Sequence record: OX090893
Direction: 5' to 3' (one strand)
Length of the DNA stretch: 64,000 nucleotides
From: Escherichia phage vB_Eco_PATM
In this document: piece by piece, positions 6,015-63,958 of the stretch
Position numbering within the stretch: position 1 is the stretch's first letter
Layout: every line of letters begins with the position of its first letter
Position numbers and translations under genes: made by a program
Notes under the pieces: model-generated
Database searches by the model: none
Seen by the model: the letters and a program-made list of their open reading frames with translations, nothing else
Told to the model about the DNA's origin: nothing

Positions 6015-6590
6015 TTATTTCTCTTCGTCAAGAAGAATTTTTACTATTTGTTTTCTTCGCTTACTTACTGTACTTTCTGGTGAAATTCCGCGCTTCGTTA
6101 GCCAATTTTTATCCTTTTTAGACTGGCATAAAGCTATCGCTTCCTTCTCCGCTTTTGCTTCCCTGAATGTCATATCGTGCTTGTCAGCATAAGCCAAGAT
6201 AGCGTTACACTGCTTACAAACTACACGCAGGTCGTCTTCTGTTACATACAATAGGCGTAAAACAAAACTTGGGATATCTTCATAACAGGTTAATGTACCT
6301 GCTGCATTAATATGGTCTACTTGAAAGTCTTTCATACCTCCTGTATGTCCACACAATTCACATTTACAATTCCAAACCTGTTTCGGTTTGCCTGTTTTCT
6401 TATCTAAAACTACATTGCCATCTTTATCCAATCTATCGGCTTTAAATCGTACAGATTGGATCTTTTTTATCTTATTCGGGTGTCTCACCCATGCCTTCCT
6501 CAAGCAACCCCTTAAGTATGTATAAAAGGCTGCTTGAGTTTTCCAAGGTGTTCCATCTCCCCAAATAACTTTAGGTTCTTTATTTTCCAA
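6015..6590 (-). CDS. Putative HNH-type zinc-finger nuclease-like protein
   Basis: 191 aa; CELCGH...QVDHINAAG...N...CKQCN pattern resembles an HNH zinc-finger core; weak. Confidence 0.4.
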   Translation of the reverse strand: MENKEPKVIWGDGTPWKTQAAFYTYLRGCLRKAWVRHPNKIKKIQSVRFKADRLDKDGNVVLDKKTGKPKQVWNCKCELCGHTGGMKDFQVDHINAAGTLTCYEDIPSFVLRLLYVTEDDLRVVCKQCNAILAYADKHDMTFREAKAEKEAIALCQSKKDKNWLTKRGISPESTVSKRRKQIVKILLDEEK

Positions 6591-58975: not shown

Positions 58976-61795
58976 ATGTATCCTATTCCTTTATTTATGT
59001 CAACAACATCAGCTTCAGTAGTAACAGCTACATCTATAACCACTTCCTCTATTGGTATTGCAATAGTTGGTAGTAAAAAGCAACTGACATACACAGTTTC
59101 ACCGGAAGATGGTGCGTTATTTGATATAGCTTTTTCATCTTCAGATAATACCAAAATGGTTATAGATAATAGTGGTATGATGGAGTTTGTTGCTGAAGGT
59201 GGTTTTGATGCAATAATGACAGCTAAAAATAATTTAGGTGCTGTCTTAACTGATCAATCTGGTGGTTATGCTTCAGAATTAAGTGTGTACACTGAAAGTC
59301 TATCTGCTATGGATGTAGGCACTACTCAACAGTTGGTTGCTACAATCAGTCCAGAAGGTGCTAAAGACCTTCCAGATATGGTAATTACGTATACCACAAC
59401 AGATCCAGAAGTAGCTACTGTAAGCCCTACAGGATTAATAACTGCTCTTAAAGATGGTAATTGCCGTATAGGTTGTACTGCAACGTATCAAGGAACAGTT
59501 GTGGCCTCTGATAGTTCTTATTTAGGTGTTAATGCTATTCCTGTTATTTCTAATGTAACAGCCGTGGCAAACAGCTATGGAGACGTTCGTGTTGCTTGGG
59601 ATGTAGCTGATCCGCTAGATGGTGATACTTATACTGTAGAAGTATTAGATTTAAGTAATAACAGTGTTCAGTGGACTACAACAACCACGAATACTCATGC
59701 TTACTTTGATATCTCTGACTCTATTCCTCTTTATGGGTTTGCTCCAACATACCTTAAAATTAGCGTTAAGAGCACCAAAGCAGCACCTGTTATCTTTAAT
59801 AACTCAATAGCTACAGATGATTCGTTCATTAAAGAAGTTATTGTCTTTGCTGGACAAGATAACGTAAATGCGCACTTTACAGAATTGTCTGGTGCAAATA
59901 AAGCAGCAATGAGTAGCACAACAGCCCGTAATGCATATGCTACGCAACGTGGTTTAGCAAATGCTGAAGTTCTTCCGTTAAATACAGCTTCTGGATCATC
60001 AGCAGCAGATAAATATGCTGACGATAAAGCAGGAACAGGTACACCAGACAACTACTGGTATGATCTGGATAACACAGCAGATGGGCCATGCTTAACTAAC
60101 TTTATCACTAAAGTCACACCTTATGCAAGTAAGGTTAAAGCAATTATTTGGGGACAAGGTGAAAATGATGCTGTATCCGCATCTTCAACTGTTGCAGGTA
60201 GATACAGTAACACTACACGTTACCATGATGCTACGATAGCTATCTTTGATAAGATGCGTACAATAGTTCCTGCTTCTCAAGCAAAAATTGTTTGGCAGAT
60301 CCTAGGACGTTCTTATTTATATGGTGTAGAAGTTAATGGTGTGGATTGGCAGAAATACAGAAATGTACAAAGAACCATCTCTACAGCACGTGATGATGTT
60401 ATCATTGGTTCTTGGGTAGATGGTGCTGAACGTTACAGTGGCTATGTTTATGAAGAAGGTATTGATGGTCGTATCCATTATATTTCTTCTGTATACCAAA
60501 CAGCAGCTACAAAACTTGCTAAATCAGCAGCAGACGGTACAGACCTAACATCAACGTCACCTGTTTGGGTCGATATGGCTGTTCCAACTGGAGCAACAGC
60601 TACTTCCCAATCTAATCAAGATACAATTTTAGCATGGGATGCTCAAGGTTATAGTAAACACTACTTCCGTAATATTAACGTCTTAACAGCATCTGTATTA
60701 ACTGAACAAACACTTAATACGAACAGCTATACGTTTACCTATGCAGATCAAGTAGCACAATATGGTTTTGCAGCAGGAACTACTATATTTGATGTTGCAT
60801 ATTATGACGAAGCAAATGATGTGTTATCTCCTTTAGTACGTTTTAATGTTAACGTTACAGCAGGAACCGAAGAAGATAAACCTGTCGTGATGGACTATGA
60901 TTTGACGCAAGAAACTCTTCCATCAGATGTTAAGGTTAATGGTGGGAACTCTTTTGCTCGTACTTCTGGAGATACACTTGTAGCCACTAATACCTTGGTT
61001 GCTCCGTTGGAGTATGTTGGTACTACCCCTGTAGGCAGACGTGTAACAGCTAACACAGCTTCACAAATTTTTGTCAACAACGCCTTAACAAGTGCAAGTC
61101 CGTGGGTAAAGACCAACTTAACTGTTACAGCTTCATCTGATAACTCTCCGGCTGGAACTACTGCCAATGTATTCAAATTAACTCCGACTACAACATCTGG
61201 TAGTCATATTTTAACTGCAACATATACTAACGCGTATAACATATATGCCGGACGTAACTGGTCTGCCTCTGTTTTCTTGAAAGCGAACGGGATTACTAAG
61301 GCCAAACTAAGATTAAAAGCAGGAACTGAAGTTAATGAGGGTACTTTTGATTTAGCAGCAGGTACATTCGCAGGAAGTGAAGCTAATATTATATCTATGG
61401 GTAACGGTTGGTATCGTGCTATTCTGCATAAAACAGGGATAGCCAAACAGTCCTCCATAAGTTTTGAAATAATTGCCTTGGATGCGACTGGTGCGGAGAT
61501 TTTCGCTGGGGATGGTACTAGTAACCTTGCAGTTTGGTTGCCACAGCTTGAAGGTGCTCCTACAGGAGAAACATCAAAAGCCGGAGCGCCTTATGTCTGC
61601 ACATACCCTGGAAGTTTAGGAGGAGTATCCTTCACTATACCAAGGAACGGACATACTGGTGTGGATGTTTACTATTCCAACGGGGACGTTGTTCGTGACG
61701 TATTCTCTGGTACGGCATCTACTTGGACAATAAACTACTCCAGCTTGTACGATTGGGGATCAGTCTTTATTACAGGTTTGAAATATTACGACTAA
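58976..61795 (+). CDS. Tail fibre/receptor-binding protein with Ig-like (Big_2-type) domains and a putative SASA-type carbohydrate esterase domain
   Basis: 939 aa; Big_2-like VATVSPTGLITALKDGNCRIGCTA; esterase-like VIVFAGQDNVNAHF (GQSN-like) and IIWGQGENDA (QGE-x-D-like). Confidence 0.5.
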   Translation: MYPIPLFMSTTSASVVTATSITTSSIGIAIVGSKKQLTYTVSPEDGALFDIAFSSSDNTKMVIDNSGMMEFVAEGGFDAIMTAKNNLGAVLTDQSGGYASELSVYTESLSAMDVGTTQQLVATISPEGAKDLPDMVITYTTTDPEVATVSPTGLITALKDGNCRIGCTATYQGTVVASDSSYLGVNAIPVISNVTAVANSYGDVRVAWDVADPLDGDTYTVEVLDLSNNSVQWTTTTTNTHAYFDISDSIPLYGFAPTYLKISVKSTKAAPVIFNNSIATDDSFIKEVIVFAGQDNVNAHFTELSGANKAAMSSTTARNAYATQRGLANAEVLPLNTASGSSAADKYADDKAGTGTPDNYWYDLDNTADGPCLTNFITKVTPYASKVKAIIWGQGENDAVSASSTVAGRYSNTTRYHDATIAIFDKMRTIVPASQAKIVWQILGRSYLYGVEVNGVDWQKYRNVQRTISTARDDVIIGSWVDGAERYSGYVYEEGIDGRIHYISSVYQTAATKLAKSAADGTDLTSTSPVWVDMAVPTGATATSQSNQDTILAWDAQGYSKHYFRNINVLTASVLTEQTLNTNSYTFTYADQVAQYGFAAGTTIFDVAYYDEANDVLSPLVRFNVNVTAGTEEDKPVVMDYDLTQETLPSDVKVNGGNSFARTSGDTLVATNTLVAPLEYVGTTPVGRRVTANTASQIFVNNALTSASPWVKTNLTVTASSDNSPAGTTANVFKLTPTTTSGSHILTATYTNAYNIYAGRNWSASVFLKANGITKAKLRLKAGTEVNEGTFDLAAGTFAGSEANIISMGNGWYRAILHKTGIAKQSSISFEIIALDATGAEIFAGDGTSNLAVWLPQLEGAPTGETSKAGAPYVCTYPGSLGGVSFTIPRNGHTGVDVYYSNGDVVRDVFSGTASTWTINYSSLYDWGSVFITGLKYYD

Positions 61796-61830: not shown

Positions 61831-62262
61831 TTAATCAGTGAAAATTACGCTTACATCTTCTTTAGAGAAGAGTTTATGATCTTCACCTTTTGTCTCAAGA
61901 GTTTCATACAGGTTAAGAAGTTCTGAAACATCTTTCTCTACTAGTTTCTTCAATGTTGCAATTTTCTGTTTGCGATTCTTAATACGTTCAGCTACAACCT
62001 TACGTTGGTATCCGGCAGTACGATAACCGGAGAAAGTTACACCAGTAAGACTTGCAGTTACAGGATCGTAGTGACGTTCAATCTGAAATTTATTAAAAGG
62101 TACAGCGTCATCACGAATAATCTTACCGCCATTACTTACTTGACGAAGACCAGTAACTTGTTCCAGTCGTGCCATAGAAATCTTTGGAGACAGACCAGAG
62201 TCCAAGTTCATACCGTTGTTAATCAGTGCCTTCAGGGTGATTTTGCTGTTCAGTGTACTCAT
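61831..62262 (-). CDS. Hypothetical protein (143 aa)
   Basis: ORF overlapping the methyltransferase 3' end by 44 nt. Confidence 0.45.
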   Translation of the reverse strand: MSTLNSKITLKALINNGMNLDSGLSPKISMARLEQVTGLRQVSNGGKIIRDDAVPFNKFQIERHYDPVTASLTGVTFSGYRTAGYQRKVVAERIKNRKQKIATLKKLVEKDVSELLNLYETLETKGEDHKLFSKEDVSVIFTD

Positions 62263-62950
62263 TTAGTCGTTCCTCCGCTTGATTAAAAATATTTACATCG
62301 GCTTCACAGCCTAAGTATTCTCTACCTGTTAAAAGTGCCGCAACTTGTGTTGTTGCACTTCCAGAGAAGAAGTCTAAGACTACATCTCCTTCGTTGGTAT
62401 GTATATTAATAAGGTCACAAAACAAAGTCAAGTGTTTTTGTGTTGGATGAAAACGATCTGCTCCTTGATAGATAGGATACTCAAACACACCCTTATGGTA
62501 GGAAGCATTGAAGGTTGGCTTCGAACCTTTAACACAAACAATAGCCATCTCTTTAGCATTACTAAGGTAGTTAACACCACTGTTGATGGGTACAGGGTTT
62601 GTTTTAATCCATTCAATAGTACGGAACATACGAAAACCAAGCGGTTCCAGGATTTCACGTAGCTCCTGGATCTTCCAGATATCATACCAAACTATGCAAG
62701 TACCACCTTTTCTAAGCACCCTGTAGGCTTCTTTGAATACTTCTTTAAAGTAAGGAATATCTACAACATCCCAATCACCGAAGTTGTAAGATACACGGAA
62801 TCTATCCGTATCTTTTCCAGTAGGCTCTCCAGACTGAAAATTTGTATCACGAGAAATAGCATATGGTGGGTCAGTAAGAATCAAATCTACACTATTGCTT
62901 TCGAGGGTTTGCAAGTAGTTTAATGCGGTGTTGTTTACAAATTCGCTCAT
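62219..62950 (-). CDS. DNA methyltransferase (DPPY class, N6-adenine or N4-cytosine)
   Basis: 243 aa; LILTDPPYA (motif IV) early and FFSGSATT (motif I) late, i.e. beta-class order. Confidence 0.75.
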   Translation of the reverse strand: MSEFVNNTALNYLQTLESNSVDLILTDPPYAISRDTNFQSGEPTGKDTDRFRVSYNFGDWDVVDIPYFKEVFKEAYRVLRKGGTCIVWYDIWKIQELREILEPLGFRMFRTIEWIKTNPVPINSGVNYLSNAKEMAIVCVKGSKPTFNASYHKGVFEYPIYQGADRFHPTQKHLTLFCDLINIHTNEGDVVLDFFSGSATTQVAALLTGREYLGCEADVNIFNQAEERLNEYTEQQNHPEGTD

Positions 62951-62965
62951 TATATCTCCTTCAAA

Positions 62966-62992
62966 GAAAAGGAGCCGTTAGGCTCCTTATAT
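62966..62992 (-). terminator. Terminator hairpin for the 63011-63958 gene
   Basis: AGGAGCC-GTTA-GGCTCCT stem-loop; minus-strand reading is followed by TTTCTTTG; nearly identical to the hairpin at 61802-61819. Confidence 0.5.
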
Positions 62993-63010
62993 TCACACAA
63001 TATTTAACTA

Positions 63011-63958
63011 TTAGAAACAGTGCAGGAAGTTTCGACCATACTGCAAACCAATAGGAGCAAATGGGATATCATCATCGAAATCTTGAACAACAGGTTCTGG
63101 TTCTTTCGGTGTTGGCTCTTTCTTCTCTACTTTTTTAGTTTCTTTCTTAACTTCTTGTACTGGGGTAGACATTCCACGGATAGCAGCAGCTACCTTATCA
63201 GACAAAGCAAGAACTTCACGAGCAGCTTCAATAATCTCTTCTGCCGTTACAGTTTTACCTGTATGATCACGACAAGCGTTAAGAATTGCGTGTCCAACTG
63301 AAGCACCAAGATCATAGTCAGTCACATCAACGCCACGATCTTTAGCAATTTCTGCTTTCAGAGTAACAGTTGCAGATTGTACCACACCAGCCAAGTCGAA
63401 AGCATCACCTTTCACACCAGCACGTAGAAGCTCCAGAGCGCCGTTTACAGCGTGTCCTGTTTCAATCCCTACGGTATCACGTTTTTTGTAGTTAGGCTTG
63501 CTACCGTCATTATTAGATGGCTTATTTCCACCTTTTGAAGAAGATTGTGCTTGCTGAACACCTTCTGTTGAAAGAATAGTGATTTTACCTTTAGAGGAAT
63601 TGTAGTATGTTTTGCCATTCCATTCAGAAGGTTTAACATCCATAGTTAGTTCTACACCTTTTTCGATAGTAACCCACTTATCACCATCTTTAACTTGCAG
63701 GTTTTCATGTTCTGGGTGCAGTTTAACTTCACCTAGGCTAACCCAAACACCTTTATCATCAGCACCAGCACCTTTCTCTTTAATAAGCAGAGATGCTTTG
63801 TGAGTTGATTCAATTTTCTTATCTGGCTGACCTGCAACCTTAATATAAGAGACTTTCATTTCATCAAACTTATCTAGTTTGACATATTCGACAATACCTT
63901 CAGCCCAGAATGCTTCTTTTTTAGTACGGCGGTCGATTTCAGAATTAATTACTGGCAT
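63011..63958 (-). CDS. Protein with SSB-type C-terminal acidic tail (DFDDDIPF); putative single-stranded DNA-binding protein
   Basis: 315 aa; Gly/Ser-rich linker then DFDDDIPF followed by 15 more residues; N-terminal domain not obviously like E. coli SSB. Confidence 0.45.
   Translation of the reverse strand: MPVINSEIDRRTKKEAFWAEGIVEYVKLDKFDEMKVSYIKVAGQPDKKIESTHKASLLIKEKGAGADDKGVWVSLGEVKLHPEHENLQVKDGDKWVTIEKGVELTMDVKPSEWNGKTYYNSSKGKITILSTEGVQQAQSSSKGGNKPSNNDGSKPNYKKRDTVGIETGHAVNGALELLRAGVKGDAFDLAGVVQSATVTLKAEIAKDRGVDVTDYDLGASVGHAILNACRDHTGKTVTAEEIIEAAREVLALSDKVAAAIRGMSTPVQEVKKETKKVEKKEPTPKEPEPVVQDFDDDIPFAPIGLQYGRNFLHCF

Follow-up and report, generated by a model that had tools for sequence, protein, structure and literature searches.

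A putative phage SSB from Escherichia phage vB_Eco_PATM with an internal DFDDDIPF tip and a recurrent, conserved C-terminal extension

The analysed window comprises 64,000 nucleotides of the Escherichia phage vB_Eco_PATM genome (OX090893). The ORF listing of this window includes a gene for a protein of 315 amino acids with the C-terminus ...VVQDFDDDIPFAPIGLQYGRNFLHCF, the features of which are given in Table 1. The gene directly downstream (62219-62950, minus strand) codes for an N6/N4 DNA methyltransferase (PF01555, E=2e-30), and its end overlaps a 143-aa ORF (61831-62262, minus strand) with no Pfam match. A 939-aa protein containing a Big_2 Ig-like domain is encoded at 58976-61795 on the plus strand, convergent on the replication genes. 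In related phages the latter position is held by differing tail fibre, tail or colanic-acid-degradation proteins, and the locus can hence be regarded as variable.

Table 1. Coordinates of the SSB-like gene, its protein regions and the signals that follow it in the window.
Feature	Position	Strand	Description
Whole gene	63011..63958	(-)	315-aa protein of PHROG 4477, putative replicative SSB of the phage
N-terminal beta-rich domain, aa 1-130	63569..63958	(-)	Probable divergent OB fold according to the model, presumed ssDNA-binding
Gly/Ser/Lys/Asn-rich disordered linker, aa 131-160	63479..63568	(-)	pLDDT 47-61; variable and gapped in the family alignment
Four-helix conserved domain, aa 161-262	63173..63478	(-)	Motifs TGHAVNGAL and YDLGASVGHAILNACRD
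Lys/Glu/Pro-rich disordered linker, aa 263-292	63083..63172	(-)	pLDDT 55-73; homologs differ in length and sequence
Acidic tip DFDDDIPF, aa 293-300	63059..63082	(-)	Same as the E. coli SSB tip, but internal
15-residue extension APIGLQYGRNFLHCF, aa 301-315	63014..63058	(-)	Member of the recurrent AP[IV]GL...h-x-x-h tail module
Tandem stops TAA TAG	63008..63013	(-)	Read from the sequence; TAA at 63011-63013, TAG in frame after it
Terminator-like hairpin	62969..62988	(-)	Downstream of the SSB-like gene, before the DNA methyltransferase gene

The earlier note on this DNA had drawn attention to a DFDDDIPF motif followed by 15 further residues, and this is indeed how the ORF ends. Exactly the eight residues of this acidic tip terminate E. 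coli SSB (PDB 1eqq) and another SSB chain of known structure (7f2n). The match of the family profile to these two chains is confined to the last ~25 residues and stops exactly at IPF; no solved chain in the PDB matches beyond that point. P299 and F300 are invariant across the alignment of the PHROG 4477 family. The extension is joined to the tip as DIPF-APIGL and finishes with H-C-F before the stop. The window contains the junction pattern PFAP[IV]GL a single time, whereas no match was obtained in 100 shuffles. The stop codon, for which resequencing had been advised, proved genuine: as 38 phage records contain the protein at ≥99% identity over all 315 residues (tblastn, phage genomes), the stops lie in tandem and a terminator follows, a sequencing or stop-codon error is ruled out.

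The protein is present in 342 phage-genome records (tblastn), the 38 near-identical ones belonging to Justusliebigvirus-type E. coli myophages such as alia, PaulScherrer and VEcB. A few depositors of these near-identical proteins annotated them as SSB. Comparison with PHROGs led to phrog_4477, the function of which is not annotated (E=2.9e-101, in two stretches), while SSB phrogs were matched weakly, by the tail only, and phrog_112, the T7 gp2.5 family, was absent from the matches. The Pfam search of the 315-aa protein gave no family at E≤1. Hence, the PF00436 OB core is not recognised, in agreement with the earlier remark that the N-terminal part does not resemble E. coli SSB. Altogether, 98 homologs (cluster representatives) have the N-domain and/or the helical domain in common with the window protein.

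According to the AF2 model, built from a 43-sequence alignment, the N-domain (aa 1-130) is beta-rich with pLDDT >90 (92.6 when modelled alone) and is followed by helices 163-179, 186-208, 215-230 and 239-260, also with pLDDT >90, and by a disordered tail (261-315), the extension part of which has pLDDT <50. Most of the invariant columns of the family alignment are located in the four-helix domain. A Foldseek search of the PDB with the N-domain returned weak matches (best E 0.087; E 0.09-0.6, TM 0.26-0.43, the best matches having TM 0.40-0.43), mostly to OB-fold ssDNA binders, namely STN1, RPA32, the MCM N-domain, the SSB of lactococcal phage p2 and Rim1. The OB fold that the earlier note had suggested looking for is suggested by a confidently predicted beta-rich domain and by its OB-fold neighbours, although the matches themselves are weak, and on the model a divergent OB fold is probable. 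The whole model gave weak PDB matches only, and no informative structural neighbour of the helical domain was found by Foldseek. Meanwhile, the BFVD matches comprised family members and a protein of Aeromonas phage 2L372X; the helical domain is common to the 2L372X/D proteins.

In the related phages Eryne, P0006 and P0004, the genes are arranged in the order primase/helicase, hypothetical protein, family A DNA polymerase, small genes, nucleotidyltransferase (Gad2-like), hypothetical protein, SSB-like gene, and DNA methyltransferase or tail fibre gene; just the downstream part of this arrangement lies within the window. In relatives, the second gene upstream of the SSB-like one encodes a protein of ~210 aa (L128:1904-2536, L129:1896-2534) that matches Gad2 (PF26128) and is annotated as nucleotidyltransferase in Eryne. 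Because of this replication-module context, the OB-like N-domain and the linker-plus-acidic-tip layout, in which D-D-D-I-P-F is preceded by a low-pLDDT disordered linker as in bacterial SSB, the window protein is most likely the phage's own SSB, with a core unrelated to that of E. coli SSB, and would accordingly bind ssDNA. Of the two possibilities raised earlier, a phage SSB with altered partner specificity is supported in its SSB part by the same three lines of evidence; the altered specificity is a reasonable supposition, since the host-identical tip is no longer C-terminal. The other, a non-SSB decoy that mimics the SSB tail, is less likely, because the family mostly ends at DDDIPF and the gene lies beside those for DNA polymerase and primase/helicase.

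Within PHROG 4477 the extension is optional. DDDIPF or a close variant of it forms the exact C-terminus of 78 of the 98 cluster representatives, and the other 20 carry the extension with the consensus AP[IV]GLQY-x-x-x-x-[IL]-[HY]-x-[ILF]. Both states are found in pairs with cores 91-94% identical, such as P0001 (with) and P0003 (without), and they alternate likewise in the pairs P0004/P0009, P0005/P0018 and P0075/P0084. In the extension-less relative P0006 the stop directly follows TTC and is succeeded by a terminator hairpin equivalent to that of the window; the sequence 3' of the stop holds no remnant of an extension. Read-through of a recently lost stop is ruled out by this lack of a remnant, together with the fixed length of the extension and the saturation of its synonymous sites described below. 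The extension would thus appear to be dispensable for the core function.

Compared with P0004, the window shows synonymous changes in five of the first eight codons of the extension, and the amino acids are unchanged. Overlap with the downstream gene as a cause of conservation is ruled out for the window, where a 60-nt gap and the terminator follow. In rV5_ev158, the last 29 nt of the SSB-like gene (L005:1301-2572), including part of the extension, overlap the start of the endonuclease VII gene (L005:2544-3167). In nieznany and several more phages, the annotations beneath the tail match likewise read 'hypothetical protein' and 'endonuclease'.

The extension is not specific to the window protein and, as far as sequence comparison goes, represents a recurrent, conserved and autonomous module. 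Its consensus is AP[IV]GL plus 9-10 residues (14-15 aa altogether), and in all cases an acidic xPF tail immediately precedes it. Canonical OB-fold SSBs of Vibrio phage phiV039C (...DFDDDIPFAPVGLQYGRNLLHVI) and of lambdoid HK75 (...DFDDDIPFAPVTLPFPRHAIHAI) carry it, as does the SSB of T1-like Hanrivervirus; the rV5 protein ends in ...CDDIPFAPVGLQYGKSRIHAL. By tblastn, the 23-residue tail was found in 231 phage records. Tails are also present in the unannotated 'Campylobacter phage' records MG065689.1 (A110a), MG065655.1 (C2) and MG065690.1 (A135), all of 140-146 kb. These tails match those of E. coli Justusliebigvirus/Vequintavirus (100% in A110a, ~67-71% in C2 and A135), so that the host labels of the three records may be wrong.

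A scan of IMG/VR with a degenerate DNA pattern for DIPFAP[IV]GL gave at least 120 loci, with the motif in frame at the ORF end in every one of them. In the 118 complete cases the extension measures 15 aa (95 cases) or 14 aa (23 cases) and is represented by 55 distinct peptides. The synonymous sites of these extensions are saturated (pS ~0.7), and pN/pS amounts to 0.4-0.6 in those extension codons that the search pattern left free. Position 15 is I/L/V/M/F in nearly all 55 variants, and the last five positions are consistently hydrophobic or small. The window protein has the junction common to the at least 120 IMG/VR loci and to 28 genomes ([DE]-x-[IVT]-P-F followed by AP[IV]GL), as well as the end of the module, in which a small residue and then I/L/M/V/F precede the stop after 14-15 aa in total. 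A beta-clamp motif (QL[SD]LF type) or PIP box, as these motifs are usually defined, was ruled out over the 55 variants, the Gln not being conserved and the spacing being a misfit.

Sorting of the cores of these proteins by BLAST clustering, Pfam and PHROGs showed the module on at least seven SSB-type cores that are unrelated by BLAST. In the set of at least 120 IMG/VR loci these include the PF00436 SSB core (88 cluster members including the HK75 reference), phrog_743 SSB (14 loci), the T1-like SSB phrog_44 (6 cluster members including the vB_EcoP_06 reference), phrog_2544 (5 loci), the T7 gp2.5-like phrog_112 (2 loci), an Aeromonas 2L372D-type core (2 loci) and an orphan core (L037, 1 locus), in addition to the window's own family, phrog_4477.

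The module is also found on a protein of another kind: the DnaB-like primase/helicase of Mydovirus ends in ...DDDTPFAPIGLQYAKHAIYVI, and phage VIK251 of this genus has the module on its primase/helicase as well as on its SSB-like protein. Only two of the listed primase/helicase representatives have the extension; most listed homologs, and nearly all the closer ones, end in a bare acidic ...DFDNDTPF or ...DLDSDSPF, and almost all primase/helicases of the Vequintavirinae type possess an acidic ...D-x-[TS]PF end. The primase/helicase of the window's own genus has no acidic xPF tail. Many of the Vequintavirinae-type enzymes are ~975-1000 aa long as compared with ~666 aa (P0252-P0287, P0294-P0307, P0324). 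The intein/LAGLIDADG-type Pfam domains PF05204, PF05203 and PF14528 were detected in one of them, P0324, and together with the length of these proteins suggest inteins inserted in the helicase.

In plasmids, the 23-residue tail was matched in 99 records by tblastn, 69 of which were typed as conjugative. The SSB of the IncN plasmid pKPC-SMH, encoded near an antirestriction gene, ends in ...DFEDDIPFAPVTLPFPNHAIHAL. When the tail alone served as the profile query, the protein database returned fragments of <75 aa only, which are informative about diversity and not about cores. A second, related flavour, IPF-[LIM]G[HF]GYG[VI]CR[KQ]AI[YH]AIS, occurs in fragmentary Enterobacterales SSBs; it and other add-ons were seen in P0133, P0137, P0140, P0143, P0176 and P0196. 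Since unrelated additions after DDDIPF, such as DDDIPFQNEFRHYKMLSYVAA and DDDIPFWGRIFKM, occur too, the add-ons that follow the SSB tip are of several kinds. In a Rheinheimera MAG, two ORFs ~550 nt apart (L138:5719-5744 and 6267-6292) both end in DDDIPFAPMGLEC[RW]RMLHC[IV] and may represent a duplicated or fragmented SSB gene.

The DNA pattern was also run against one genome per species from 185,579 species, in which 34 loci matched. Real SSB tails account for 28 of them, nearly all from Gammaproteobacteria, one being located in a MAG labelled Parasphingorhabdus. The remaining six are chance matches and serve as a negative control: none has the acidic tip and five have no fixed length. Extensions of 15 aa belong to Enterobacterales in 15 of 16 genome loci. 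Those of 14 aa, of the ...QYPALLxCM type, fall within Alteromonadales, Vibrionales and Aeromonadales in 11 of 12, the twelfth being the Parasphingorhabdus-labelled MAG. Across cores, the length class of the extension at these genome loci hence tracks the order of the host. Two genome loci that were inspected are prophage-like, with ERF or Sak4-like neighbours, and the neighbours of extension-bearing SSBs in IMG/VR are heterogeneous (integrase, ERF, RdgC, Sak4-like genes). Such heterogeneity does not support a single phage-encoded partner encoded beside the gene. In its occurrence, the module is restricted to mobile elements, that is, phages, prophages and plasmids.

The C-terminal tip of SSB is treated as an obligatorily terminal docking peptide, the free Phe carboxylate of which is read by more than 12 genome-maintenance enzymes. 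The SSB-Ct pockets of ExoI and RecQ hold the terminal Phe by its side chain as well as by its alpha-carboxyl group (PMC3159472), and since the known pockets bind this terminal group, an internal DDDIPF should, by analogy, dock poorly in the canonical way. The reading proposed here, the chances of which we see as evenly balanced, is that of a phage SSB with a docking tail re-targeted by a second, selected short motif. The gene would code for the SSB of the phage replisome, consisting of an OB-like beta domain and a four-helix domain, a disordered linker and a copy of the host SSB tip, in the layout of bacterial SSB and T7 gp2.5, where a flexible acidic Phe tail docks partners. The extension is an autonomous short linear motif under purifying selection, appended to acidic xPF tails by mobile elements of Gammaproteobacteria. 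By removing the free alpha-carboxylate of the tip Phe, it would weaken or abolish canonical docking in the pockets of host SSB partners, while a second contact would be supplied by AP[IV]GL and by the last five residues, the two hydrophobic patches conserved in it. The net result would be a tail directed at another partner or at only some of the partners; a conserved host protein is the likeliest candidate.

That the extension adds a binding element and re-targets the tail is most likely because a pure cap needs neither a conserved sequence nor a fixed length. We infer the existence of such a partner, and a conserved host protein is favoured over a phage one, as the module occurs on elements with a polymerase and on others presumably without one, its length class follows host order, and the neighbouring genes are heterogeneous. 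The correlation with host order could, however, reflect gene exchange within host-limited phage pools rather than co-adaptation to a host protein, and the perfect conservation of DDDIPF before the extension could also mean that the extension is removed by proteolysis in vivo.

Several other explanations must be weighed against re-targeting by a selected motif. The extension might mainly serve as a cap: ExoI, RecQ, RecJ or other host proteins whose docking site is free DDDIPF-COOH, or a defence that senses the SSB tip, would no longer find it. Phage or plasmid ssDNA coated with the capped protein would then be neither attacked nor sensed, and the acidic tract would keep its intramolecular role. 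The use of the terminal Phe alpha-carboxylate by the known SSB-Ct pockets (PMC3159472) fits this explanation, as does the confinement to mobile elements (phages, prophages beside ERF/Sak4-type recombinases, the IncN ssb near an antirestriction gene) and a patchy presence in near-identical phages that is typical of host-interaction traits. We nevertheless consider it unlikely: for blocking the carboxylate alone any short addition would do, which leaves unexplained why both sequence and length are strongly conserved over saturated synonymous divergence, and the perfect conservation of DDDIPF in the extended versions argues that the tip is still read by something. The tail with its extension might instead dock the phage's own replisome as in T7, the extension tuning the contact. 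The module on both primase/helicase and SSB-like protein of VIK251, the acidic ends of nearly all Vequintavirinae-type primase/helicases, the family A polymerase gene that adjoins the SSB-like gene in relatives, and the role of the T7 tails (bioRxiv 10.64898/2026.02.22.705581) all point in this direction. The module is, however, also present on SSBs of lambdoid prophages, T1-like phages and IncN plasmids. At the lambdoid prophage, T1-like and IncN loci inspected, no polymerase or primase/helicase gene was found nearby, and we take these elements to encode no polymerase of their own. Moreover, the primase/helicase of the window's genus lacks such a tail and the extension is optional among phages with near-identical replisomes, all of which makes docking on the own replisome quite improbable.

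A role in turnover seems likewise to have a rather small chance of being correct. Here, the extension would be a C-terminal degradation tag with a non-polar end (FLHCF, AIYVI, LLMCM) read by an AAA+ protease (ClpXP, ClpAP, FtsH or Lon), AP[IV]GL perhaps acting as an adaptor-like enhancer comparable to that of the two-part ssrA tag. A mobile-element SSB in competition with that of the host would thereby be kept at a limited level or be limited in its lifetime. Non-polar C-termini destabilise proteins in E. coli, and the hydrophobic or small character of the last five positions, with I/L/V/M/F at position 15 in nearly all 55 variants, agrees with such a tag. So do the C-terminal location of the module in every case, its fixed length, its dispensability for the core function, and its predicted disorder, by which it would be accessible. 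Yet the part conserved most is AP[IV]GL at the N-terminal side, not the extreme C-terminus, the terminal residues are unlike the LAA-type ClpX motif, and why the tag should always follow an acidic xPF tail, and not just any C-terminus, is left unexplained.

The proposal of a re-targeted docking tail can be carried further, to a version that we find possible though doubtful: AP[IV]GL...h-x-x-h would be a previously unrecognised docking motif, specific to mobile elements, that forms, together with the internal DDDIPF, a two-part ligand of one conserved gammaproteobacterial protein. Its target might be a nuclease of the SSB interactome such as ExoI, or a component of an AAA+ protease; the [IV]-G-L element is reminiscent of the [LIV]-G-[FL] loops that mediate the docking of ClpX and ClpA on ClpP. 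As an anti-host device exchanged between unrelated replication proteins, the module would enable phages, prophages and conjugative plasmids to hijack or inhibit this host factor on their ssDNA. The searchable literature yielded no paper with the motif strings or with an extension after DDDIPF; subscription-only papers lie outside that search, and a prior description is possible. Should a nuclease, a protease or a defence protein prove to be the partner, the peptide might also find use as a tool or an inhibitor lead. More generally, the extended tips point to an unstudied layer of control of the SSB interactome by phages and plasmids. The peptide is short enough to be synthesised for partner discovery, and near-identical phages with and without the extension offer a natural on/off comparison for genetics.

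Compared with known systems, the window protein resembles bacterial SSB (PF00436) in passing from a DNA-binding core, a presumed one in its case, through a disordered linker to an acidic tip, which in E. coli is the identical DFDDDIPF. It differs in that its core is not PF00436 and includes an additional four-helix domain, and in that 15 more residues follow the tip, so that the Phe carboxylate is absent. Its tail can be regarded as a modified SSB-Ct. With T7 gp2.5 it has in common the character of a non-canonical phage SSB with an acidic Phe-type tail. In T7, both gp2.5 and gp4 contact the DNA polymerase through acidic tails that end in Phe (bioRxiv 10.64898/2026.02.22.705581). The primase/helicase of Vequintavirinae has a gp4-like acidic tail, that of Mydovirus has the extension too, and the window-type gene adjoins a family A polymerase gene in relatives. 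In contrast, no sequence match links the window protein to gp2.5, the T7 tails end at Phe, and the module also occurs on prophage and plasmid elements that presumably have no polymerase of their own. By analogy, then, the T7 precedent would fit the tails of the Vequintavirinae primase/helicases, but not the module on prophage and plasmid SSBs.

The closest known proteins are those of PHROG 4477 itself, i.e. the rV5, phi92 and PVP-SE1-type 'hypothetical proteins', sometimes annotated as SSB, of which the window protein is a direct member. The long forms of rV5 and Mydovirus have the N-domain, the helical domain, the tail and the extension in common with it; the window protein is a short form of ~300 aa without the second beta domain of the ~400-aa rV5-type proteins. 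The same ...DFDDDIPF followed by AP[IV](G/T)L...H-x-[ILV], with 15 aa, is found in the SSBs of HK75, epsilon34 prophage-type elements, phiV039C and IncN plasmids. Unlike the window protein, these canonical SSBs of mobile elements have ordinary PF00436 OB cores, and their genes are located in recombination modules or in plasmid regions near an antirestriction gene.
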